Of a DNA stretch of 64,000 nt, positions 25,731 through 46,275 are shown in pieces (the stretch's first letter is position 1; each line of letters opens with the position of its first letter). The position numbers and the translations under genes are program-made. Location: the IMG/VR virus record IMGVR_UViG_3300045303_000182, positions 45,847 through 109,846 of that record; one strand, written 5' to 3'. The notes beneath the pieces were generated by a model. It was not told where the DNA came from. It worked only from the letters and a program-made list of their open reading frames with translations, and searched no databases. Source of the stretch: a virus.

Positions 25731-27386
25731 TCACTCGGTCTGTTCGTCAAAGTCTGACCGCTCCGGCGGGTGCGGTCCATAGGCCATCCACTGAAGCTCC
25801 TGAGCCATCGCCGGATCGACCTGCTGGAGCATCGGAACGGGGTTGCCCTCGGCGTCAGCGCCCATCATCGGCTGCCCGTCGGGTGTCATGCCCGTCGCCA
25901 TCATGGTGAAGCTGTTGATCTGGCCGCGGATGAGGTCGAGCGCACCCTGCTGCTTCGTGTCCTCCAGCACCTCTTCGAAGATCTCGCGCATCTTCTGGTC
26001 CGGGAAGGCGTAGCCGAGGTCGCGCAGCGCTCCGCGTCGGGACTCGAGGTTCATCGCCATCATCGCCTGGATCTCGTTGATCTTGATCAGCCGGTCCATC
26101 GGCATCGGGGCGGGCCAGTCCACGTAGGTGCGGTAGCTCGCCGGGTCGTTGGGGTTGAGCTCGGGGTACTGGTCGGGCTTCAACTCCGTCGAGGACAGCA
26201 TCGGGTTGTACACGACGAGGTCCGGGGCGAAGAGGAAGGCGTGCCGGATGATCAACTCGTTGATCTGCTGGAACAGCGGCGTGTACTGGGTCTTCTTGCG
26301 CTCGTACTTGAGCATCAGCGGCTGGTACTGGATCGACAGTGCGACGCCTGATGTGTTACTGATCGGCTGCATCGTGCCGAGCGCCTGAGCCGGGACGCCG
26401 GTCAGTTCGTGCATCGCCTGCTTGAGCAACTCCATGTAGCCGAGCGGACCGGTGAAGTTGGTCTGCAACTCCAACTGGCTGATCTTGGCGTCCTTGTTGT
26501 TGATGGCCCACACCTTGCGTGGACCCTTCTCCAGGTTCGACGCCTTGGCTCCGGTGATCACCGTGACGGGAGCGACGTGGTAGTTGATGATGTCGCTGAT
26601 CTCCGTGGCCTTCTCGTTGTACTCACGGTTGAGCGAGACGAGGTCGGTGATGTCGGCCAGGCCCCACGGCGACGAGGCCACAGGGATGTTGGTGCAGAAG
26701 GCGATCGGGATCGTGCCCAGCGGGTTGGGGCGCGCGTCGATCAGTTCGTCGTTGATGTACTCCTCGATCGTCTCCTCGGTCATGAGCTCGACGTATGTCA
26801 TCACCATGCGCGAGCCGTCCGAGGCCGTGCCCCAGAACTTGTACTTGAGCTTGAAGCGGATGAGGCGCGATCGATCGTGCGGGTGGAACTCCGGGAAGCA
26901 GAAGGCGGGGTTCAGCGGGAGGATGCGGATCTTGCCGTTGTGCGGCACGCCGGCCGGGTCCACGTACGGGTCTTCGAAGGCGACCTTGACGAACACGTCA
27001 CCCGAGACACCACCAAGCTGGCCGATCTCCTGGAGGATCCCCATCTTGTTGTTGTGGACCTCCCACACTTCCTTGAGCGAGTACGGCACGATGGCCGCGG
27101 TCGCCTCGGGGCTGTGGAAGTTGATGCCCTTGCCGAAGCAGAAGTTGCAGATGTAGTCCGCGAACGCGCGCACCCAGTTGAAGACCAACTGCGGCTCGCC
27201 TATCTCACGCTTGTATGCCCAGTGATGGCCGAGGTACCACGCCCAGTTGCTGGCGTACCGGTTCATCCGAGGTCCGTGGACTTCGAACTCCTCGTCGGCA
27301 AGCTCCACCAGACCCAGCGGTGAGATAGCAACGGTGAGGTCGCTGGCAGCGCCTCGGTAGCTGGGTGGGTAGAAGGTGGCTGCCAT
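25731..27386 (-). CDS. Portal protein (SPP1 gp6-like)
   Basis: 551 aa; NPLGTIP, WGLADI, NTSGVAL; upstream of scaffold and capsid. Confidence 0.92.
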   Translation of the reverse strand: MAATFYPPSYRGAASDLTVAISPLGLVELADEEFEVHGPRMNRYASNWAWYLGHHWAYKREIGEPQLVFNWVRAFADYICNFCFGKGINFHSPEATAAIVPYSLKEVWEVHNNKMGILQEIGQLGGVSGDVFVKVAFEDPYVDPAGVPHNGKIRILPLNPAFCFPEFHPHDRSRLIRFKLKYKFWGTASDGSRMVMTYVELMTEETIEEYINDELIDARPNPLGTIPIAFCTNIPVASSPWGLADITDLVSLNREYNEKATEISDIINYHVAPVTVITGAKASNLEKGPRKVWAINNKDAKISQLELQTNFTGPLGYMELLKQAMHELTGVPAQALGTMQPISNTSGVALSIQYQPLMLKYERKKTQYTPLFQQINELIIRHAFLFAPDLVVYNPMLSSTELKPDQYPELNPNDPASYRTYVDWPAPMPMDRLIKINEIQAMMAMNLESRRGALRDLGYAFPDQKMREIFEEVLEDTKQQGALDLIRGQINSFTMMATGMTPDGQPMMGADAEGNPVPMLQQVDPAMAQELQWMAYGPHPPERSDFDEQTE

Positions 27387-28234
27387 CAGAATCCTTCGAA
27401 CTGCATCTGGTTGGCGACCCGACGGTGCGTCGGCTCAGGCTCAGGCTGTGATACCGCAGTATGGCGCAGTTCGGACAGCAGCGGCTCATGCGCGCTCTCA
27501 GTGGAGGCTCCCCACTCGCCCAGGCCCGCCCCCTTGCCGATGCGCTCCACGTCGTTGGTGGAGAAGTCGATCGCCTCGCTGAGGCTGCCCATGCCGCCAC
27601 GGATCAGGCCCCACTTGGGCGTGTAGCCGATCGTCTGCCCGCTGCGCTCGCCCTCGTTCGCCACGACCGGATCGAACAGCGCCTGCTGGATGTGCGGCAG
27701 CTTGCCTTGCTCCTGGTGGAGGCGGTTGGCCTCGGGCGTGCCCTGCACAGCGTGGTGAGCGAGGTCCACGTAGTCGAGGCTGCCTCGAGCTTCGATCGTC
27801 GGCTCGCGACCGGTAGGGGTGTAGTCATGCACCCCTTGGGGGGCTATGGCGTGGTCCCGTACCGTGGTACCAGGACGGAGACGTACCTCGGCCTCGTTGT
27901 CGAAGCCCCACTGCGACTTGCCGGTCTTGAACTCGCCGTTGTCGGTGTAGTGCGAGCGGATGTTGCCGCCCATCCACTCGCCCTGGCTGATGATCTGGTC
28001 AGGGTCCACGACCGCTCGATGCACGGTGCGCTCCTCGTCGCTCCCGCCGAGGCCGGTGTAGTGAGCCACGTTCTGGTCGGTGGTCCAGTGGACGCCAAGT
28101 GAGTCACCAGGCCCGCCCTGCATGCGGTAGATCGTCGTGTTCGGCGTCGGGTTCTTGGCGAGCTTCTGGAACTGCTCCTTGCGGAGCTTCATGGCAGCCC
28201 ACTCTTCATCGCTCACACCCGCCATCAGGTCCAC
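27386..28234 (-). CDS. Putative ADP-ribosyltransferase (R...ExE type)
   Basis: TIYR...GVHWTTDQNVA...NEAEVRL spacing matches the three ART catalytic strands. Confidence 0.55.
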   Translation of the reverse strand: MDLMAGVSDEEWAAMKLRKEQFQKLAKNPTPNTTIYRMQGGPGDSLGVHWTTDQNVAHYTGLGGSDEERTVHRAVVDPDQIISQGEWMGGNIRSHYTDNGEFKTGKSQWGFDNEAEVRLRPGTTVRDHAIAPQGVHDYTPTGREPTIEARGSLDYVDLAHHAVQGTPEANRLHQEQGKLPHIQQALFDPVVANEGERSGQTIGYTPKWGLIRGGMGSLSEAIDFSTNDVERIGKGAGLGEWGASTESAHEPLLSELRHTAVSQPEPEPTHRRVANQMQFEGF

Positions 28235-28440
28235 CGGCTCTTGGTCGGGGACTTCGCGCGCATGTAGCTGCGGTAGGCGTTCTTGATCGGGTTGCGGACG
28301 TAGAGCGCTGGGAACTGCTTGCTGCTCAGCGTCGGGAAGGGGTCACTGGGACTGCCCGTCTGGTGCGAGGCAGCGAACGTCTCGATGTGGTGCCGCGGCG
28401 GCTGCCGGCGTGGGCGTGTCTCGCCGCGGTATCCAGGCAT
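28225..28440 (-). CDS. Small basic protein with LSSKQF motif
   Basis: Start MPGYRGE follows the upstream stop; overlaps the next gene. Confidence 0.5.
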   Translation of the reverse strand: MPGYRGETRPRRQPPRHHIETFAASHQTGSPSDPFPTLSSKQFPALYVRNPIKNAYRSYMRAKSPTKSRWT

Positions 28441-28444
28441 CTCG

Positions 28445-28588
28445 CTACTTCGTGTCCTTGCCGGTGTCTTGGCGCTCGCGCCCCTTGCTGGCCGCAGACG
28501 GCTTGGCCTTGGTCTGCTCCTTCTTGCCCTTCGTGAACGGCTCGGCCTTCTTGCCGCCGAAACTCGCTGGCTTCTTGTCACCAGGCAC
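28445..28588 (-). CDS. Small Lys-rich protein (47 aa)
   Basis: GTG after GAGGAGG RBS: MPGDKKPASFGGKKAEPF... Confidence 0.5.
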   Translation of the reverse strand: MPGDKKPASFGGKKAEPFTKGKKEQTKAKPSAASKGRERQDTGKDTK

Positions 28589-29039
28589 CTGCGCTACCTC
28601 CTCCTCCACCCCCGCCAGGGGTGTCGTACATGGGTGAGCGCTCGACCTTGCGGTTCGGATCGAACGCTGTGTTATTGCCATATGAGCCGTTGATCCCTCG
28701 CGACCCGTGAGATCCGCCGGGGCCGTACTCGGCCTGGGCGAGCGCGCGTTGGCCGGGAAGCGAGGAGTGCAGCCGCCAGTCCTGGGTGAACCCGCCGCCC
28801 TGGGGATGGGGCACGACGATCTCAGGCCCCTGCTTCTGCGGCGGGGTGTAGCTGCCGGTGATGCCGATCTGCGGCCCCGGCTCCTTCTTGGGATCAGCGA
28901 AGAGCTTGTACGGGATCGTGCTCTCCAGCACGCTGTCCTTGTCGTCGGAGAAGAACGCACCGTGGATCGCGCCGATCGCACCACCGCTGACGAAGCCAGC
29001 AGCAGCCTTGAGCGGGTTGGGCCACCAGTCCTTCGGCAT
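28578..29039 (-). CDS. Hypothetical protein (contains DPNRKV)
   Basis: TGATG coupling to the upstream ORF. Confidence 0.55.
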   Translation of the reverse strand: MPKDWWPNPLKAAAGFVSGGAIGAIHGAFFSDDKDSVLESTIPYKLFADPKKEPGPQIGITGSYTPPQKQGPEIVVPHPQGGGFTQDWRLHSSLPGQRALAQAEYGPGGSHGSRGINGSYGNNTAFDPNRKVERSPMYDTPGGGGGGGSAGAW

Positions 29040-29218
29040 CAGCTACCTCCGTGACCGAACTTCTCCGTCATCTCGCTCAAGAAGCGAGAGTCCTCGTCGT
29101 CGGGGTTGTTCATGGTGGCCTTCATCCGTGCGAAGCGATCCTCCATGGCATCGCGCGACACCTGCCGATCGGGATGCCCAGCCTTGTTGGGCTTGTCCAC
29201 TCCATGTCCACTCGCCAT
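29039..29218 (-). CDS. 59-aa protein with shared MASGHGV leader (absent from ORF track)
   Basis: My translation: MASGHGVDKPNKAGHPDRQVSRDAMEDRFARMKATMNNPDDEDSRFLSEMTEKFGHGGS. TGATG coupling on both sides. Confidence 0.75.
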   Translation of the reverse strand: MASGHGVDKPNKAGHPDRQVSRDAMEDRFARMKATMNNPDDEDSRFLSEMTEKFGHGGS

Positions 29219-29433
29219 CAGCGTGATCCTCCTTGCTCTTTCGGCAGTTGGTGACCCATGCCGATGCTTCTCATGTACTCGGCGTAGTCACCCGTGCCGA
29301 CGGCCTTGGCCGAAGCGTCCGAAGCCCTCCAGGCGTCAAGCTCCTGGGCGTATGGACCAACGTCCTCAGGCCCGACCTTGCGGCCGGGATGGTCTGCCTT
29401 GTTGGGCTTCGGGACGCCATGACCGCTTGCCAT
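29218..29433 (-). CDS. 71-aa protein with shared MASGHGV leader
   Basis: MASGHGVPKPNKADHPGRKV...; same N-terminus as the neighbouring ORF. Confidence 0.75.
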   Translation of the reverse strand: MASGHGVPKPNKADHPGRKVGPEDVGPYAQELDAWRASDASAKAVGTGDYAEYMRSIGMGHQLPKEQGGSR

Positions 29434-29435
29434 GA

Positions 29436-29654
29436 CTAGGCCGGAAGCTGCGTGGCCTCGGGCGGCGTCTCGTTGTCGCCGCGCGACGCCTGGATCTCAT
29501 CGATCGCCGCCTGGATCTCGTCCACCTTGGCGTTGATCTCCTGGCCGACCTCGGCAGCCTTGGCCGACAGCGCCTGGCGCAGTTCCTGCACCGCCGTGTG
29601 TGCCTTCTCGATGGCGGCGTCGAGGCGACCTCCGGGGGTTGCTGTGTCACTCAT
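29436..29654 (-). CDS. Small coiled-coil protein
   Basis: AAGGAG RBS; heptad pattern. Confidence 0.65.
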   Translation of the reverse strand: MSDTATPGGRLDAAIEKAHTAVQELRQALSAKAAEVGQEINAKVDEIQAAIDEIQASRGDNETPPEATQLPA

Positions 29655-29665
29655 GTCGTATCTCC

Positions 29666-29977
29666 TTATGGGGTTGGTTGACCAAGTAGATGGTCAGCGA
29701 GTTGTCGATGGAAGCCCTTGACGAGGGTCTGCGGGGGATCACCAAGCTCGTAGGGGTTCATCCCGATGAGCTCGTCAACCCCGTCCTCCGCAGGCTCGTA
29801 GAGCGGTACGCCTTCTTGGTACTCGGAGAGGTCGGACTCGGTGTCACTCGTTGACACATAGACGTAGAGCGCCTGGCGCTCCTCGTCCCACTGTGCGCCA
29901 TGGACCTTGACCTTGCCGTTGCGCGGCAGGTTGATGTCATATGCCAGCTTCCAGTACACGTCTTGCTTCTCAGCCAT
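29666..29977 (-). CDS. Hypothetical protein
   Basis: In operon, normal spacing to neighbours. Confidence 0.55.
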   Translation of the reverse strand: MAEKQDVYWKLAYDINLPRNGKVKVHGAQWDEERQALYVYVSTSDTESDLSEYQEGVPLYEPAEDGVDELIGMNPYELGDPPQTLVKGFHRQLADHLLGQPTP

Positions 29978-29980
29978 GTG

Positions 29981-31321
29981 TCAGTCGGGGAGGTACAGCG
30001 CCCCGGCCCCTCTCTTGGTCCGTCTGGTGAAAGTTGTCTCGGGCATCGCTGCCGCCTGCCAACCGTAAACCTTCTCAGGTGTGTACGACAGGGTGCGAGC
30101 GCCTGGCTCCGGGTGCAGCGTGCGGTGGATCTGCTCCTCGCCCCAGGCAGCGCCCTGCTGGTAGCGAATCTTGCCGAGGCCGCGCTCGCCCAGCACCTGC
30201 CGGAAGGCGAAGTCCATCGCAGCGTGAGCGTGAGGGATGCGGGCCATCGCCAACTCCCGCTCCGACTTGGAGCCAGTGTCAGCGCCCGACGGGTTGATGT
30301 TCTGCCCCGACCCCTTGATCCCGGAGAGGTGCGGGAGGGCGATCCCGGCCATGTGGATGTCGCCCACGGTGAACGGCGCAGCCTCGTCAACGAACGAGCC
30401 AGCGAACGGAGAGGTCTTCGGGGCTGCTCCGAACAGCGGGTTGCCCTCGGGTGAGGTCTTCGACGGCAGGCCCATCCAGTCGGTGATGTCAGCGCCCTCG
30501 ATGCCCTGCTTGAGGCCCCATCCAGCCTTGCGGACGTTGGTGAACATGCCGATGCCACCACTGCCGGGACCATGGGTCCGACCGATCTCCTTGAGATCCT
30601 CCCCGGAGATCTCGCGGAACTGCTCACCCGTCGTGTAGCGCCCGCTCTGAGCGATGTGTCCCGCCACCGCAGCAGCGTTCACGTTCGACGTGTTCATCGC
30701 CCCACCAAGGGTCGGCTCAGCGAACTTGTTCTTGGCCGAGGTCATGGCGATCGCTGCTGCCTGCCACTCGCTTGGGGCACCAGGGATAGCGCGCTCCAGC
30801 GACTTGCGAGCGAACGACTCAGGCTCGTAGAAGTTGGCGGCGTACGGCGTCGCCCCCATCTGGCTGGAGCGGGTGTACGCGCGATCGAGGCCACGGCCGA
30901 GGTCAGCCGTCATGCGGCCCAGGCTGGTGCCGTGTTGCTCGAGGCCGGCGTGAGCGCGGGTTCGCTCGTCATCGGAGAGGTCTTCCCAGCGCGTCGGCAA
31001 CGGGAAGGGGTTGTTGCCGTGCTCGGCCAGTTCGTTGAACTCGTACATCGACGGAGCAGCGCGGGCGTGCGTCTTCTCGATGTCGGTCCAGCCCATCTTC
31101 TCGTAGTGGGCAGCCATGTCGCCAACGCCGCGCAGCGGCGAGTCCATCTTCGACCCGCTCTGCTCGTAGGAGCGACGACGCGTCGTCAGCGTGTTCCGCA
31201 CGGCCACGTTCTCCGGGCGAGCCATGTCCTCGGGGGTGAAGCTGCGCTTGACGCCCTCGCTGACATCGGACGCCTCGCGGAGCGTCTGGAGCGGCCGACC
31301 TCTCTGTGGTGCTGTAGGCAT
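29981..31321 (-). CDS. HhH-GPD/DNA-glycosylase-like phage protein (DUF7178-like)
   Basis: NFY...AAIAMTSAKN...NV..A...NVRKA...PKT..F...TVGDIHM...QGAAW pattern recalled from this phage family. Confidence 0.5.
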   Translation of the reverse strand: MPTAPQRGRPLQTLREASDVSEGVKRSFTPEDMARPENVAVRNTLTTRRRSYEQSGSKMDSPLRGVGDMAAHYEKMGWTDIEKTHARAAPSMYEFNELAEHGNNPFPLPTRWEDLSDDERTRAHAGLEQHGTSLGRMTADLGRGLDRAYTRSSQMGATPYAANFYEPESFARKSLERAIPGAPSEWQAAAIAMTSAKNKFAEPTLGGAMNTSNVNAAAVAGHIAQSGRYTTGEQFREISGEDLKEIGRTHGPGSGGIGMFTNVRKAGWGLKQGIEGADITDWMGLPSKTSPEGNPLFGAAPKTSPFAGSFVDEAAPFTVGDIHMAGIALPHLSGIKGSGQNINPSGADTGSKSERELAMARIPHAHAAMDFAFRQVLGERGLGKIRYQQGAAWGEEQIHRTLHPEPGARTLSYTPEKVYGWQAAAMPETTFTRRTKRGAGALYLPD

Positions 31322-31354
31322 ACGAAATCAGTTTCCGTTCGCTAGCATAAACCC

Positions 31355-31552
31355 GTGGCTACCAACCAACTCACCGGAACCGGCTCGCTCATCGACCTCC
31401 TTGAGGCGCTGACTGACGAGCAGCTTGAGGAGCAGATCACGTACTGGCAGGAGCGCCGTTCCGAGGCGGTGGCGCGCGGCTACGCCTCCTGGCGCTACAG
31501 CCGCTCCATCGAGACGGCCTCCGGGATCCTGTCCAGCCGTCATTCCGCCTGA
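31355..31552 (+). CDS. Small protein antisense to the late operon
   Basis: Fills the gap between two minus-strand genes. TAGCAT -10 box lies 6 nt before the GTG at 31355. Confidence 0.6.
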   Translation: MATNQLTGTGSLIDLLEALTDEQLEEQITYWQERRSEAVARGYASWRYSRSIETASGILSSRHSA

Positions 31553-32151
31553 GCCGCCCTCCGAGCCTTGATCTTGGACTCCTTGGCTGCCTTGGCGTCA
31601 CGCACCGGTTGATTGGCCCAACTGGCGATCTCCGGGTACTTCTCCGGGTCGAGCGCAGTGGCCGGGTTGTTCTTGATGACGTTGGCGAACTCGGGGAACG
31701 CCGCCGACAGCCGAGCCGGGGGAGTGTGCTCCGACCCGGTGAACCATGGGTTCGGCTCCTCGGCCATGTCGTGGAGGCTGAACGACGCTTCCTGGCCGCG
31801 CAGAATCTGCGCTCGGCGTGAGTTGCTATGTCCCTGCGGCGTGGCCGGATAGACCTTCGGGATGTCGAGCACGCTGGCGTCGTCGGACTGCCAGCCGCCG
31901 ATCATCTCCTGGCCGCGACCCTTGGCCTTCTGCTGCTGCCAGAGCGGAGCCGACCCGGCAACGTAGCCAGCGAGGTGTGCCTCGTCGGCGGTCCCGCCAA
32001 CACGAAGCTCAGCAGCGGGGTGCGCTGCCACCGAATAGCCCTCGGTGACGAAGTCGCGCTTGCGGGGGTCGTACGTGAAGCCACCCTCCGTCGCGAGACG
32101 GTTCTTCATCTCACCGAACTGGTGATCGCTGGTAACTCCACTCCCACTCAT
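31540..32151 (-). CDS. Conserved phage effector-like domain of unknown function
   Basis: GGFTYDP...GYSVA...IGGW....LD...GQEASFSL. Start MSGSG by ATGA overlap. Confidence 0.55.
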   Translation of the reverse strand: MSGSGVTSDHQFGEMKNRLATEGGFTYDPRKRDFVTEGYSVAAHPAAELRVGGTADEAHLAGYVAGSAPLWQQQKAKGRGQEMIGGWQSDDASVLDIPKVYPATPQGHSNSRRAQILRGQEASFSLHDMAEEPNPWFTGSEHTPPARLSAAFPEFANVIKNNPATALDPEKYPEIASWANQPVRDAKAAKESKIKARRAAQAE

Positions 32152-32450
32152 CCCTGCGGACTCCTTGGCTTGACCCACCCCTTGCTGATCTGCTTGGCCC
32201 GCTGACGGGCCTGGATCTCGGGTTCCCGGATGTACTGCGGCTGGAGCGCCGGCGGAAGCTCATGCTTCTTGAGGTAGTTCTCCTTGGCCGCTGTGATCGC
32301 TGCTGGCGTGTTCTCCAGCATCTCAAAGCCGGTCTTCGACCGACTCGGCCCGACGGGCTTGATGAGATACTTGCCCAGGTTGGACTTGGGACGACCAGGA
32401 GCCGCCTTGGTCCAATCGACCAACACCGTGCCCTTCTTGAGGGCGGGCAC
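32148..32450 (-). CDS. Basic hypothetical protein
   Basis: In operon. Confidence 0.55.
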   Translation of the reverse strand: MPALKKGTVLVDWTKAAPGRPKSNLGKYLIKPVGPSRSKTGFEMLENTPAAITAAKENYLKKHELPPALQPQYIREPEIQARQRAKQISKGWVKPRSPQG

Positions 32451-32453
32451 GGG

Positions 32454-32816
32454 TCAGTCCTGGACGTTCGCCGGGTTGATGCGGATCAGCCGTCGCTCGG
32501 AGCCAAGCTCCATCTCGAACTGCGGCGGCAACTGGCCGACCGAAGCGCCGATGACGAAGTCCTGGAGCATGGTCGGTGCCTCGATCCAGGTTGCGCTGCC
32601 GACGTGAGCTCGCTCACGCATGGTCTGCATCGGATCCTTGACGCAGACGAAGGGACGGCCACGACCGTCACCGCCCGGATCACCGTAGGCACCCTGGCCG
32701 AAGTCGGCGGGGATGTCGGTGTCGGTGGCGACGCCCTCTTCGAAGCGAAGGGGACCACGCCGCGCGGTGTTGATCGCGATGGCGTGCTCGTAGCCCGATT
32801 CTGGACGGTATGACAT
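32454..32816 (-). CDS. Conserved head-associated hypothetical protein
   Basis: RGPLRFEEGVATDTDIP...RERAHVGSATWIEAP; AGGAGG RBS. Confidence 0.65.
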   Translation of the reverse strand: MSYRPESGYEHAIAINTARRGPLRFEEGVATDTDIPADFGQGAYGDPGGDGRGRPFVCVKDPMQTMRERAHVGSATWIEAPTMLQDFVIGASVGQLPPQFEMELGSERRLIRINPANVQD

Positions 32817-32879
32817 ACGGGCCTCCTGTTAGCTGGCTATGGACGGAGCATAGCCCTATACCACGACCTGGCTGAGGTA

Positions 32880-33908
32880 TCAGGACTCGGGCTTCCGCAG
32901 CTTCCACTTCTCTTCGTCCCGACGGGGAGTCCCAAGCCGAACGTCGGCGGGTGTCTCACCTTCGAATGGCAACCCCAACTGCGTACCGACACCGCCCGGA
33001 CGCATGTCTTCCTTCACCTTGATCGACGGGTCGTAGCCAGCCTCGGCCAGATGGACCAACGCCGGATGCGGCTTGTTGCGGAACGCGTGCTCGTCGCCGG
33101 TCCAGCCGTACTTCTCGCTGGCGGGTCGCCCGTTGAGCGGGTTCCGCGCCTGCATCACATCCTCCGACCACGTCCTTGCCGTCTCGGGTAGTGCCCGATA
33201 CGAGGTAGAGCCGACAGCCTCCACGTCGTTGCGATAGGCGAGCGTCTTGCCTTGCTCAACCAGATCGGTGGCCTTCTCGGCGTAGTTGGCAGCAGAATCA
33301 GACCAACGGGTGTCCTTGGTTCGCTCACCTGTCTCCCGGTTGACAATGTCGTTGTTGGATCGGTACGGACCGCCAGCGATCGACCCACCGGGCCTCTCCG
33401 TCATGAACGTTCCTCGAGGCGGGTCTGCCAACGTCTCAGCAGGGATGCGCGCTGGGTGCATGAACGGACGCGGCGCGCGTGACGCAGCGGCCTCCAGGTC
33501 ACCGAAGTGCATGCCCACCGCCGAGCCGTAGTTGGTCATCGGGCGCTCTTGGGAGTCCACCGACCAGTCCCGGTAGTCCTCGTTCTCCTCGCCCTCGTCG
33601 TCGTAGTAGGCGTTGCCCCAGTCAGCACCTTCGAAGTCGGACGGGTCACTCGCTCGGTGCTCGTACTCGTCCGAGCGCGCAAGTTGCGAGTCCTCGGAGC
33701 CGTGCCAGGAGATCACGTCGTCGTGTGCCGGCGTGTCGCTCTGGCGCATCCAGTTCGACGGGTGGAGCCGCATCGGGTCACCCGTGTAGCCGCCAGTGGG
33801 AGCGAACAGTCGGCCCTGGGGGTGCTTCTCGGTGCCCTCGTAGGGCCGCGACTTGTCAGCAAGCCACAGGTGCCGCGTCTGTTGCGACAGGTGCTCGCCG
33901 TCAGCCAC
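32880..33908 (-). CDS. Putative ADP-ribosyltransferase (ART-PolyVal-like)
   Basis: WHGS...GMHFG...AA..R...YRNDVEAVGSTSY matches the H-H/Y-E ART pattern of polyvalent proteins. Confidence 0.6.
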   Translation of the reverse strand: MADGEHLSQQTRHLWLADKSRPYEGTEKHPQGRLFAPTGGYTGDPMRLHPSNWMRQSDTPAHDDVISWHGSEDSQLARSDEYEHRASDPSDFEGADWGNAYYDDEGEENEDYRDWSVDSQERPMTNYGSAVGMHFGDLEAAASRAPRPFMHPARIPAETLADPPRGTFMTERPGGSIAGGPYRSNNDIVNRETGERTKDTRWSDSAANYAEKATDLVEQGKTLAYRNDVEAVGSTSYRALPETARTWSEDVMQARNPLNGRPASEKYGWTGDEHAFRNKPHPALVHLAEAGYDPSIKVKEDMRPGGVGTQLGLPFEGETPADVRLGTPRRDEEKWKLRKPES

Positions 33909-34167
33909 GACTACTCAGCCCACGGCCGAAGTCCTTGGCACGACCTCGCTCCGTGGCTTCGAACGCCTCATCCTCGATGCGGTCAGCGTGCTCAGCAGTG
34001 CCACCAACGGAGTGGAAGTCCTGACGAGCCTGCGTCCAGGCTTCATCCAGGTTGGCGCTCGCGTTGAGGATGTCGGGGTGCCGATAGTCAGCGTTGGGAT
34101 ACGCGGCTCGGTGAGCGGCAGCGGCAGAGACAGCCTCACGAAGCCTTTGGTCAGGCGAGAGAGCCAT
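33901..34167 (-). CDS. Hypothetical protein (N-terminal LSPDQ)
   Basis: TAGCGT-N6-ATG leaderless-type start. Confidence 0.6.
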   Translation of the reverse strand: MALSPDQRLREAVSAAAAHRAAYPNADYRHPDILNASANLDEAWTQARQDFHSVGGTAEHADRIEDEAFEATERGRAKDFGRGLSSRG

Positions 34168-34179
34168 GACCGGACGCTA

Positions 34180-35781
34180 CTACCGGAAGAAGGGCGAATC
34201 GATGACTTCGACCAGCGGCACCGAGTCACCGATCGTGCAAGCGCAGGCCAGCGCAGCCGAGTCCACGTAGTCGTCGTGGGCCTCTCGCTCGCTGGGAGCC
34301 TCGATGAGGAGGTACTGGCCCTTCATCACCTTCTCAGCGTCGGACATCTGCTGGCGGAAGCGCCGCCAGACGCGCGTACGCCGCGCCTTGCTGTGGCCGG
34401 GGTAGATCAGCATCTGGCGCTGTGTCAGTTGGATGAGGTGCTTCCACCGCTCCGACTGCGTCTTGGCGTCGCTGTTCATCGGGATGACCTCGCAGCGCGA
34501 TCCCATCAGCCGCTGGATGCGATCGGCCACGGCGGAACCCATGCCCTGGGCGTCCACGGCGATGTGGGAGATGACATACGGGTCGAGGAACTCCATGATC
34601 TGGAAGTACTGCTCCTCCCACGCGGTGTTGTGGATCTCCAGCCAGTTGAGGATGCGGTGCTCGCGGTACCCGGCAGCGTCGGGGTGGTCCCAGTCCACCC
34701 AGCACACCGTCACGACGGTCGAGTCCTTCACACGGGCCGGGTCGATGCCCACGACGCACGGCGTGCGGTGCCACGCCTTCATCAGCGGCATGCTCTTGTC
34801 GGCCAGCATGTCCAACTCGTCCTCGGTGATGAGCATGCCTCGGTCGAGCATCCACTTGAGGCAGTAGCTCATCTGGAACTCTTCGGAGTCCTCCCCGAGG
34901 CGGTACTTCTCCTTCTCCACGAACTTGCGGTACGCCTCGTTGTACTTCGACACGACGCGGTAGTCGTATTCGAAGTGGTTCGTGCGCCGGCCGCGCGCCC
35001 GACGCTTGTTGAGGTTGATGGCCTTGTAGAAGTCACCCTTGTGGTAGCCGGGGGTGCCGATCTTGACCATCGAGCCACCGGTCGAGGCGAGCATGGGGTG
35101 GATCGACTTGCGGATCACCTGCTCGTCAGCGTCCTGGCACTCGTCCACGACGAGGATGTGATACGTCGAACCTTCGATCTTCGCCCGAGGGTTGGCGGTG
35201 TGCCGACGGCAGCGGGAGCCGTTGGAGAGCTTCAACTCCCGGCTCTTGGCGTCGAGCTTGGTGGCGATCTCGGGATCCTGAAGGAAGTGACCGGCGCGGT
35301 CGCTGCTGAGGCGGTCGATCAGGCGGCGGTAGACGATCTCGCTCTGCTCATCGACCGGGGCGAACAGACCCACCCACACGCCGTTCTTGAAGCGCTCCAG
35401 GATGGGATACGTCTTCGCCAGGATCGGGAAGAGGATCATCACCCCGGCCAGGGTGGTCGCCACGACCTCGCTCTTGCCTGACTGGCGGGCCAGGAGGCCG
35501 GTCATCTCCTCAGCGTCCTGGAGGACCAGGGACTCGATCATCCGGTACGACATCGCCCGCTGGTACGGGTAGAAGTCCTCGCCCCACAGTTCCTCGCAGA
35601 ACAGGATCGTGCGCTTGACGAGCTCATCCACGAACCCGGCCATCTCGGGGTCGAGCAGGACGAAGGACTCATCCTCGGCCTGGATGTTCTCGCCCTCGTC
35701 GTCCTCAGCCTCCGCAGCGAGTTGCTCCTCAAGCTCTTCGTCGCTGGGGCCGTAGCCAAGGTCTTCGATGGTGACAGCCAC
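34180..35781 (-). CDS. terL: Terminase large subunit
   Basis: ARQSGKS Walker A, LVVDECQ Walker B, IGTP coupling motif, VGIDPA and HDDYVDS nuclease motifs. Confidence 0.95.
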   Translation of the reverse strand: MAVTIEDLGYGPSDEELEEQLAAEAEDDEGENIQAEDESFVLLDPEMAGFVDELVKRTILFCEELWGEDFYPYQRAMSYRMIESLVLQDAEEMTGLLARQSGKSEVVATTLAGVMILFPILAKTYPILERFKNGVWVGLFAPVDEQSEIVYRRLIDRLSSDRAGHFLQDPEIATKLDAKSRELKLSNGSRCRRHTANPRAKIEGSTYHILVVDECQDADEQVIRKSIHPMLASTGGSMVKIGTPGYHKGDFYKAINLNKRRARGRRTNHFEYDYRVVSKYNEAYRKFVEKEKYRLGEDSEEFQMSYCLKWMLDRGMLITEDELDMLADKSMPLMKAWHRTPCVVGIDPARVKDSTVVTVCWVDWDHPDAAGYREHRILNWLEIHNTAWEEQYFQIMEFLDPYVISHIAVDAQGMGSAVADRIQRLMGSRCEVIPMNSDAKTQSERWKHLIQLTQRQMLIYPGHSKARRTRVWRRFRQQMSDAEKVMKGQYLLIEAPSEREAHDDYVDSAALACACTIGDSVPLVEVIDSPFFR

Positions 35782-35964: not shown

Positions 35965-36198
35965 TCACTCCGTATCGAGGTACGAGGCGTCGCGAGGTAT
36001 CACACGCTTGCGTGGTGGCTCTGGCTCTACGACCGGCTCTTCCACGTCGAGCTTCTTCGGCTTGCCGAGGCCGCGGTGGTAACCGGGGCACGCTGCCAGA
36101 TGGTTCGCTACTGCCTGCTGCAGGGACACTCGCCTCATGTCAGGTGATGAGGTCCAGCCTCCGCAGTACTCGCAGAGGTGCCTCGCCTTGCGCGGCAC
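35965..36198 (-). CDS. Small Zn-finger protein
   Basis: CEYC...H...C. Confidence 0.5.
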   Translation of the reverse strand: MPRKARHLCEYCGGWTSSPDMRRVSLQQAVANHLAACPGYHRGLGKPKKLDVEEPVVEPEPPRKRVIPRDASYLDTE

Positions 36199-45798: not shown

Positions 45799-46275
45799 TC
45801 AGGAATCCTCCTCAGCCTGAGCCTCTTCCAGCGCGCGTCGCAGAGCGAGCCGCTCCTCCTCCTCTTCGTGCTCGGCCATCCAGTCCTTGAGCCTCTGGAG
45901 GTTCGCCGGGGTCAGCGGGCCTGCTGGGAAAGCGAGATCAAGCTGATCGAAGGCGAGCACAGGGAACCACGCCCAATCTCTCCCTTCCCATACCCCGATA
46001 CGGTGCGCGGCCTGGTCGTACTTGAGCGTGCCCACCTCGAGGAGCTCAAAGATCCGCAGTGCCTCCTGGATCTCGCGCGACCGATGAGGCTTCATCTCGA
46101 TGTAGTACTTGCCGTCCACGAAGTGGACCGGGAAGCCCTCGGGTTGGCCGAGGGCACCACCGAACTGCTGGGGACTCAGGTGGGGGCTGCGGTGGAGCGC
46201 GGCGCGGTCGCCGCGCTCCCGTAGCTCATCCATCGTCGCCTTGGGGATCTCAACCCAGGACGGATCAACGGTCAT
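45799..46275 (-). CDS. Hypothetical protein (contains HLSPQQF)
   Basis: ATGA overlap with the LPxTG gene. Confidence 0.6.
   Translation of the reverse strand: MTVDPSWVEIPKATMDELRERGDRAALHRSPHLSPQQFGGALGQPEGFPVHFVDGKYYIEMKPHRSREIQEALRIFELLEVGTLKYDQAAHRIGVWEGRDWAWFPVLAFDQLDLAFPAGPLTPANLQRLKDWMAEHEEEEERLALRRALEEAQAEEDS

Follow-up and report, generated by a model that had tools for sequence, protein, structure and literature searches.

The DNA analysed here, called the window, comprises 64,000 nucleotides (positions 45,847 to 109,846 of the IMG/VR virus record IMGVR_UViG_3300045303_000182) and is the final 64 kb of this single 109,846-bp record, which has a guanine-cytosine (GC) content of 64% and a CheckV completeness of 93%. 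Within the window the genes for the terminase (TerL) and the portal protein are separated by 6.8 kb, the cassette, which contains 14 genes on the minus strand and one possible open reading frame (ORF) on the plus strand. Several of the encoded proteins carry similar short peptides, of the forms LSxxQF and QxxLF, and these peptides and the proteins that bear them are the subject of this study.

The portal protein is 57% identical to the portals of Streptomyces phage BRock and of Alone3, LuckySocke, GiJojo and pSt2308, which are phages of ~112-116 kb with contractile tails. At least 467 portal relatives are present in IMG/VR. For comparison 88 loci were fetched (labels such as L005 and L017), of which 45 contain both TerL and portal and 42 were gene-called. 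An assignment of BRock to the actinophage cluster BM was dropped, as this cluster is described in the literature as a different group of ~200 kb. No match to the region was obtained with megablast against GenBank phages, and tblastn with g282, g342 and one protein of family F10 against the same phages gave none either. Viral and metagenome contigs were also scanned with single proteins (g282, P0202 and P0166), and nothing was found.

Genes were modelled from the GC content at third codon positions (GC3) by frame and with a codon-usage gene caller. From the terminase to the portal the following features were obtained:

34180-35781, minus strand: TerL, the upstream anchor (Pfam Terminase_6N/6C; phrog_2, E 7e-26)
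33901-34167, minus strand: g88, a doubtful small gene with LSPDQ at 34147-34161 (GC3 0.64, coding score 8)
32880-33908, minus strand: g342, a protein with a predicted ADP-ribosyltransferase (ART) fold and an H-Y-E-like residue set (44 homologues; AlphaFold2 (AF2) model)
32454-32816, minus strand: g120, universal in the interval, with no lead to its function (homologues in all gene-called loci)
32148-32450, minus strand: g100, a small basic protein (family F8, 7 loci; conserved in high-GC relatives)
31540-32151, minus strand: g212, the 'GGFT/GGW' protein, with TSDHQF at 32116-32133 (39 homologues)
31355-31552, plus strand: a possible gene of 65 aa (coding score 20)
29981-31321, minus strand: g446, a DUF7178-like protein with an HhH-GPD-like predicted fold (Atlas neighbours; F10 alignment)
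29666-29977, minus strand: g103, an acidic protein (coding-type GC3)
29436-29654, minus strand: g72, a small coiled-coil-like protein (weak coiled-coil Pfam noise only; homologues in L012 and L009)
29218-29433, minus strand: g71b, with HPGRKV at 29374-29391
29039-29218, minus strand: g59, with HPDRQV at 29159-29176
28578-29039, minus strand: g153, with DPNRKV at 28644-28661
28445-28609, minus strand: a small Lys-rich gene (frame-specific GC3 shift at 28390-28660; coding score 33)
28225-28440, minus strand: g71, a small basic protein with LSSKQF (28312-28329) in its middle (GC3 frame plot)
27386-28234, minus strand: g282, a protein with a predicted ART fold and an R-S-E-like residue set (20 homologues; AF2 model)
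25731-27386, minus strand: portal, the downstream anchor (Pfam SPP1_portal, E 1e-22; phrog_64, E 2e-33)

All 14 minus-strand genes show coding-type GC3, most of their junctions are gaps or overlaps of 12 nt or less, and the stop codon of g282 overlaps the start codon of the portal gene (TGATG). Together with the Pfam and PHROG anchors these tight junctions bear out an earlier description of the locus from the letters alone (the sequence-only reading), in which terminase and portal are split by ~6.8 kb of mostly coupled ORFs. The gene models of that reading were mostly right, but the gene at 28445-28609 and the possible plus-strand gene at 31355-31552 had been missed, and g88 is weakly supported. 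The plus-strand ORF sits in the only sizeable gap of the cassette (218 nt, in the 31322-31552 region), which is also its only long non-coding stretch on the minus strand, and is not homologous to the opposite-strand ORFs in the gaps of other phages. No excess of intrinsic promoters or terminators was found within the cassette, where counts were at the level of shuffled sequence. None of the cassette proteins had a match in Pfam (E up to 10) or in PHROGs, and profiles run against PDB sequences gave nothing relevant. For g88 no homologue is present in the 88 fetched loci, and for g103 none was found in them either.

The sequence-only reading had pointed to an LSxxQF-like motif in several proteins and had taken it as a signal for loading into the capsid. 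All seven strings that it quoted (LSSKQF, LRKEQF, TSDHQF, HLSQQT, LSPDQ, GETQF and HLSPQQF) are present in the proteins named. They are not, as was claimed, often close to the N-terminus: LSSKQF occupies residues 38-43 of the 71 residues of g71, HLSPQQF residues 32-38 of 158 in the protein encoded at 45799, and LRKEQF of g282 (28169-28186) residues 17-22, within a helix that is predicted with confidence. The loose pattern [LT][SR]xxQ[FT] occurs seven times in the genome and three times in the cassette, which makes up 6.6% of the residues. The dipeptide QF is found 35 times in the genome, six of them in the cassette, and ~20% of these lie within the first 40 residues, as protein length predicts, so there is no N-terminal bias. 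These counts from a single genome are not significant and are weak evidence for a shared LSxxQF tag, and the pattern had been defined after the fact.

Across the relatives the picture is different. QF is present in 12 of 17 homologues of g282 and in 12 of 27 homologues of g342, nine others of which have QT at this place, and it occurs in 26 of 132 tails of DUF7178-like proteins where 3.5 are expected. In these tails it usually stands 3-12 residues before a terminal motif, as in ..SGSQFKGQGSLF. Homologues of g71 in L003-L005 and L010 are 68% identical, and the L003-L005 copy has MSSKQF. All 22 aligned sequences of the g212 family keep H19, Q20 and G22, and nearly all keep F21 and E23, which gives an N-terminal HQFGE[MI] block. 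The earlier claim of a shared peptide thus stands in so far as unrelated proteins do share short peptides and a QF signal appears in the families of the relatives; in this genome it is insignificant, and a different motif, QxxLF, is far stronger. By sequence, the tail has two parts, with QxxLF as the major element and xxQF as the minor one before it.

QxxLF is best seen in the two ART-fold families. In g342 all motifs lie in segments predicted to be disordered, with a predicted local distance difference test (pLDDT) below 50: HLSQQT (33876-33893), QGRLF (33804-33818) and QLGLPF (32964-32981). The disordered N-terminus of the family carries HLxxQ[FT] and an almost invariant P-Q-G-R-L-F-x-P, with Q-x-R-[LM]-F in 26 of 27 sequences, and a disordered linker near the C-terminus carries Q[LMT]SL(P)F, with Q[LMT]xL(P)F in ~17-22 of the 27. 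In g282 the motif QQALF (27674-27688) belongs to an H-x-Q-x-x-[LM]-[FL] segment at residues 181-187 that is kept in 17 of 17 homologues. The disordered C-terminus of g282 ends with QFEGF (27389-27403), and other homologues end with QGTLF, QGSLL or QLQLDL.

Enrichment of the motif was measured over all proteins encoded between TerL and portal in the relatives. Among 274 gap proteins Q..LF occurs 20 times, compared with 2.9 +/- 1.6 in shuffled sequences (maximum 8 in 500 shuffles), a 7-fold enrichment; control proteins have 22 matches where 16.2 are expected. Within the last eight residues it is found in 8 of 274 gap proteins and in 3 of 716 controls (Fisher p 0.002). These three control matches all come from genes located upstream of TerL, and the structural genes that follow the portal contribute none.

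The enrichment is strongest at the C-termini of DUF7178-like proteins. The last 12 residues contain Q..[LM][FL] or Q..[LM].[FL] in 61 (46%) of 132 full-length cluster representatives, where 0.55 (0.4%) are expected by chance (maximum 3 in 300 shuffles), an enrichment of ~100-fold. Many more of these tails have near-variants such as ..PTLF, ..RLF and QLKLWG. Members of family F10 end with QGALF, QQMALF, QGELFG, QDSLFD, QLTLF or QQLGLGL, and L014_197 has QESLF near its N-terminus. The position of the motif thus varies between C-terminus, N-terminus and loop, and some proteins have two or three copies. It is also found away from the interval: in four related contigs (L089-L092) a tagged DUF7178 gene (..NLSKQLDLFS) has RuvC on one side and DpdA/RNR on the other, within a replication block with PolA, UvsX and Cas4, and no TerL, portal or g120 homologue was found around it within the fetched loci (at least 8-10 kb on each side).

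A further set of proteins with such motifs is ParB-like. A 299-aa protein encoded outside the window (genome C1:9970-10869) has a ParB/Srx-type GGHHRIAAQ box near its C-terminus and QQRLPF, QPQLF and QFQMF within its first 54 residues, and related ParB-like genes with an N-terminal DHLQGKLF are located directly before the portal in L005 and L009. A 112-aa protein (genome 9635-9973) was considered as DarT/Tpt1-like; no support was obtained and the candidate was dropped.

For the folds of the tagged proteins, AF2 models were compared with known structures. The model of g342 has a pLDDT of 81 and a predicted template-modelling (TM) score of 0.74, with pLDDT below 50 at residues 1-9, 15-25, 31-39 and 306-331. 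VIA-align returned 52 chains with Z of at least 2, and among the 50 listed nearly all have an ART fold. The best match is a RES toxin (Z 5.1, root-mean-square deviation (rmsd) 3.6, 117 aligned residues), and the others include ExoA (4.9), ParT (4.8), cholix, MbcT, diphtheria toxin and PARPs. Invariant across 27 homologues are H69 (in W-H-G-S), G128-S129, H134 and E230, as is a YGSxVGMHFG block. The model of g282 has a pLDDT of 75, with residues 264-282 below 50. Its residues 30-145 match almost only ART toxins: ranks 1-10 in VIA-align are ART or ART-like toxins, among them TreX (Z 4.8, rmsd 4.0, 95 aligned residues), EcPltA (4.0), LT-A (3.8), Scabin (3.8) and pertussis S1 (3.5), and TreTu is matched as well. 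R37, S45, H49-W50, E114 and E116 are invariant across 17 homologues. In Foldseek both models gave only matches with E above 0.3, yet the ART fold is enriched in the top rows.

Along the sequence, the invariant residues of both proteins follow the order known from ART enzymes, which makes them candidate catalytic residues. Compared with the R-S-E class (cholera toxin/LT-A, pertussis S1, Scabin, TreX/TreTu), g282 has R37, S45/T51-T52 and E114-x-E116 in the expected order, but the spacing from R to the STS element is unusually short. Compared with the H-Y-E class and its relatives (diphtheria toxin, ExoA, PARPs, RES/ParT/MbcT), g342 has H69-G-S, Y127/H134 and E230 in the expected order. From the models, both proteins have an ART fold with a plausible catalytic set and represent two divergent families, so that 'ART-like', as proposed earlier, holds at the level of the fold. 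Because Z-scores to known ART toxins and enzymes are low and sequence models detect neither protein, g342 and g282 were not placed in a named ART family.

The largest cassette protein, g446, was compared with Atlas clusters through language-model features, where DUF7178 is found on 27 of the 30 nearest clusters (score 0.95). Its Atlas model (pLDDT 0.55) has as best match a 3-methyladenine glycosylase II/HhH-GPD cluster, with a TM score of 0.58 by target and 0.31 by query, and in this sense the earlier label 'HhH-glycosylase-like' is upheld for the fold. g446 aligns with family F10, with which it shares the invariant residues Y165, H366, Q389 and W393. The F10 member in L017 matches DUF7178 (PF23802) with 24.0 bits (E 4e-5), under the cut-off of 27 bits, and g446 itself has no Pfam match. 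A profile of g446 and its relatives collected 267 clusters at 50% identity, and in many relatives F10 is the large protein encoded directly before the portal. A literature search found no paper that names DUF7178. Outside the window, the genome also has a DpdA/queuine tRNA-ribosyltransferase-like gene (C1:3248-4654; phrog_887) whose product is 31% identical to the copy in L089 (L089:16302-17804). It suggests, by homology, a 7-deazaguanine-type DNA modification in this clade, which may be relevant to what the glycosylase-like DUF7178 protein does.

In the 45 loci with both anchors the distance from TerL to portal ranges from 621 bp to 6.8 kb, in phages of 40-66% GC, and the genes in between have nearly all the same orientation as the anchors. 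The encoded proteins form 88 families, 54 of which are singletons. Only g120 is universal: it is present in 42 of 42 gene-called loci, tblastn detected it in 51 loci, and BRock and Alone3 have it as well. L005 (portal 78% identical), the closest relative whose interval was fetched in full, has only g120, g100, g71 and g282 in common with the window. Because the content of the gap varies and g120 alone is universal, the interval is an accessory-gene hotspot and not a fixed effector operon. It does hold stand-alone enzymes of the kinds known from polyvalent proteins, as the sequence-only reading had it, with two ART folds here and ParB-like proteins in relatives.

In sequence, the (P-[GN])-Q-x-x-L-F core is indistinguishable from the motif by which bacterial proteins bind the beta sliding clamp. 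Clamp-binding motifs have the form Q-phi-x-[L/M]-[F/L] or Q-phi-x-[L/M]-x-[F/L] and are located in C-terminal tails (Pol II, Pol IV), in disordered N-termini (Hda) or in loops (PMC11139829). Phage Mu provides a precedent, as its MuC protein enlists the host clamp with a clamp-binding motif (PMC12867686). The peptides described here show the same pattern as those of Pol II, Pol IV, Hda, MutS, DinB1 and MuC (QL[SD]LF), in both length classes and with the same placement, sometimes more than once per protein, and their carriers are DNA-directed. The clamp motif of M. smegmatis DinB1, QESLF, is the same string as in L014_197. In the cassette QLGLPF of g342 fits the consensus in full, and QGRLF of g342 and QQALF of g282 fit all but the aliphatic position 2. 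Five- and six-residue forms alternate at the same C-terminal position in F10 (QGALF, QLTLF, QDSLFD, QQLGLGL). In this interchange, in their disordered context, in their number per protein and in their DNA-directed carriers the peptides resemble the motifs of clamp clients.

We therefore favour, with a probability of about one half, that the peptides are docking motifs for the DNA sliding clamp of the host (DnaN), carried by enzymes of the accessory hotspot. No match to PF00712, the N-terminal domain of the beta clamp, was found in the genome, and no clamp is annotated in the 15.8-95 kb read of the Alone3 record, which has a PolA replisome. Since no phage clamp was found, any clamp partner would be that of the host. 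The genes of this hypervariable interval, among them g342, g282, g446, g212, the universal g120 and those of the tiny proteins, would be transcribed with the head operon. Their tags would dock DNA- or nicotinamide adenine dinucleotide (NAD)-directed enzymes onto the DnaN ring and so concentrate them on clamp-loaded DNA, i.e., at replication forks or on replicating phage DNA. There the docked enzymes might modify DNA or replisome proteins, or they might compete with host clients of the clamp. The tag would then be an address to a site in the cell and not to the capsid. We infer DnaN as the partner, and likewise an enzyme activity and the targets that it modifies, on top of the gene models, the folds and the conservation, enrichment and position of the motif that are reported above.

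A number of points weigh against DnaN docking. The case for DnaN as the partner is one of motif resemblance, and position 2 is often Gly or Gln instead of the preferred aliphatic residue (QGRLF, QQALF, QGTLF). The QF strings of the sequence-only reading (QFGEM, QFQKL, QFEGF, QFPAL) break the canonical position 4. QQALF of g282 is located in a confidently modelled region (pLDDT ~87) and not in a disordered one. g446 of this phage lacks the terminal QxxLF (its tail is ..GAGALYLPD), unlike most of its relatives. The ART-fold Z-scores of the carriers g342 and g282 do not exceed 5.1, and neither has an ART match in Pfam. Conservation of the motif over phages of 40-66% GC fits a conserved target in the host but would fit a conserved phage partner equally well, as the portals are 55-80% identical, and the place of the genes in the head operon, together with their coupling to the portal gene, still suggests an association with the virion. 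In addition, none of the carriers (ART-fold, DUF7178/HhH-GPD-like and ParB-like proteins) is a known clamp client, and the conserved P-[GN] prefix and the companion ..QF set the peptides apart from known clamp motifs.

Some of these departures would be accounted for if the tags are real docking peptides for another hub, either a phage adaptor or host SSB, RNA polymerase or a chaperone, with a convergent likeness to clamp motifs. We regard this as a serious alternative, albeit an unlikely one. It would explain why position 2 departs from the aliphatic preference, why P-[GN] is conserved before the Q and D or P often follows the F (..PGQGSLF, ..LFDP, ..LFAP), all outside the published clamp consensus, and why ..QF accompanies the motif as a second element in many tails. 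That lineage-specific docking codes exist in this genome is indicated by a terminal RKRxIPR peptide on replication proteins (see below). However, the alternation of five- and six-residue forms (QxxLF, QLxLxL) reproduces the known classes of clamp motif, the motif is kept over the whole range of GC contents, and no candidate for a phage hub was identified.

The proposal of the sequence-only reading was that the peptides are capsid-targeting signals, through which the enzymes are loaded into the prohead and injected with the DNA, as are the internal proteins and Alt of T4 by means of their capsid-targeting sequence (CTS). It has the gene order in its favour: the proteins are encoded in the TerL-portal interval by tightly coupled genes of one orientation, one of which, g282, overlaps the start of the portal gene. 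Solo ART- and ParB-type domains beside virion genes have been interpreted as packaged effectors (PMC5512222), one structural match of g342 is a chain of a cyanophage pre-ejectosome (Z 3.7), and QF occurs in the first 15 residues of 13 of 274 gap proteins compared with 4 of 350 downstream structural proteins. Nevertheless, we consider capsid loading by these peptides improbable. A CTS-type leader at the extreme N-terminus of every cargo was not found: LSSKQF, HLSPQQF and LRKEQF are internal and QxxLF is C-terminal or internal, in some proteins N-terminal, and at times present in two or three copies. The motif is also carried by proteins encoded upstream of TerL and by the DUF7178 protein in the replication module, it matches a well-defined motif for docking to host proteins, and it is absent from most cassette proteins (g120, g100, g103, g72, g446). 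PHROGs recognised a portal, a 279-aa scaffold-like protein and a major head protein in the head module and no prohead protease, neither in these three genes from portal to major capsid nor in four further genes on the head/tail side, a scan that a distant or unrecognised protease could escape; no cleavage consensus was seen after the tag. LSxxQF as a capsid-loading signal thus found no evidence, given that it is not consistently N-terminal, that the scanned genes contain no prohead protease and that the conserved core is QxxLF. The proteins may still be packaged into virions, because their genes are part of the head operon, but the tag itself is no evidence for this. A literature search found no virion proteomics for this clade.

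The comparison with known packaged effectors leads to the same distinction. As in the T4 locus of internal proteins (IPI-III, Alt, the latter a packaged ART), there are variable small proteins near head genes and a common N-terminal peptide followed by divergence; this likeness, seen in the genes, fits the microproteins with an HPxR[KQ]V leader (g59, g71b and relatives, see below) better than LSxxQF. A T4-type prohead protease or cleavage site was not recognised, and neither LSxxQF nor QxxLF is restricted to N-termini. Polyvalent proteins (Iyer, Burroughs, Anand, de Souza and Aravind, 2017; PMC5512222) likewise bring ART- and ParB-type domains next to virion genes, with fast turnover of content and a presumed role in host conflict. 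However, they consist of 2-15 fused effector domains, often with MuF or portal, whereas here the genes are separate, small or single-domain, without a MuF or portal fusion and without a match to ART-PolyVal or another ART family of Pfam, so only their 'solo versions near virion genes' are comparable. In the account of packaged phage effectors by Iyer et al. (2017) clamps are mentioned 0 times (PMC5512222).

That the peptides have no common function and are chance or compositional features of an ordinary dump of accessory genes (morons) would agree with the insignificance of LSxxQF in the single genome, the 54 singletons among 88 gap families and the lack of any Pfam or PHROG match in the cassette, but it is hardly credible and largely refuted by the 7-fold excess of Q..LF over shuffles in gap proteins, its ~100-fold enrichment at DUF7178-like C-termini and its near-invariance in two unrelated ART families, within disordered segments that vary in all other respects.

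Going beyond the cassette, DnaN docking can be extended to a whole clade, which we offer only tentatively. A large clade of uncultured actinophage-type viruses of ~110 kb might plug changing accessory enzymes into the clamp by means of a two-part code, [LV]-[SGN]-x-x-Q-F plus P-[GN]-Q-x-x-L-F. The enzymes would include two new ART families, DUF7178 proteins and ParB-like nucleases, and the clamp would serve as a general landing pad for enzymes of takeover or DNA modification, possibly delivered with the virion. If the tags bind DnaN, they would provide a rule, readable from sequence, for phage proteins that act at the host replisome, and a first clue to the function of DUF7178 and of two ART-fold families unseen by Pfam and PHROGs. 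It would also add to the few phage proteins known to make use of the sliding clamp, a target of antibiotics in its own right. Peptides common to portal-side genes need not mean capsid loading and may address a site inside the host.

A better candidate for a capsid tag than LSxxQF, by analogy with T4, is the leader [ND]-H-P-x-R-[KQ]-V. It is common to g71b, g59, g153 and an 87-aa protein at the left end of the genome (C1:444-707). Over the first 20 residues g59 and g71b are identical at 16 positions, after which the two proteins diverge. The gap proteins of the relatives contain P.R[KQ]V 16 times and the controls five times, which is a ~10-fold enrichment, and 14 of the matches are N-terminal leaders of proteins of 53-128 aa, often encoded in tandem, that are wholly divergent after the leader. 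Gap genes with the HPxR[KQ]V leader are also present in L005, L010, L012, L014, L018 and L056. A different pattern, HPR..G, is absent here. In this clade the HPxR[KQ]V leader may be what really marks cargo for the capsid.

For g120, the universal gene of the interval, Pfam, PHROGs and Atlas gave no lead to a function. The protein and its homologues keep a RGPLRFEEGVATD block, and many relatives begin with ..APAPQFPE... It may be a component of head assembly.

Besides ParB-like proteins, other lineages have in this gap a metallophosphoesterase, an HslV-like peptidase, a GP88-family protein and a hydrolase with VanY and peptidoglycan-binding parts. The HslV/proteasome-like peptidase (family F6; phrog_1040, E 2e-26; L057:9051-9686) is present in 11 low-GC relatives, where its gene is located just upstream of the portal and next to the metallophosphoesterase (F1); the phage of the window has neither. 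Low-GC phages also encode distant relatives of g212 just before their portal. A VanY-type D-Ala-D-Ala carboxypeptidase with PG_binding_1 is present in the gap of several relatives (family F12; L025:6773-7579, L018:4312-5109) and could be a virion-associated or lysis enzyme.

A further short peptide, RKRxIPR, was observed within a few residues of the terminus of a resolvase-like protein, a RecA-like protein and several proteins of the replication block (genome C1:18138-30557, outside the window). The same peptide is found on a 54-aa protein encoded just upstream of TerL (window 35965-36129), and from its sequence it appears to be another terminal docking code of this genome, independent of the one described above.

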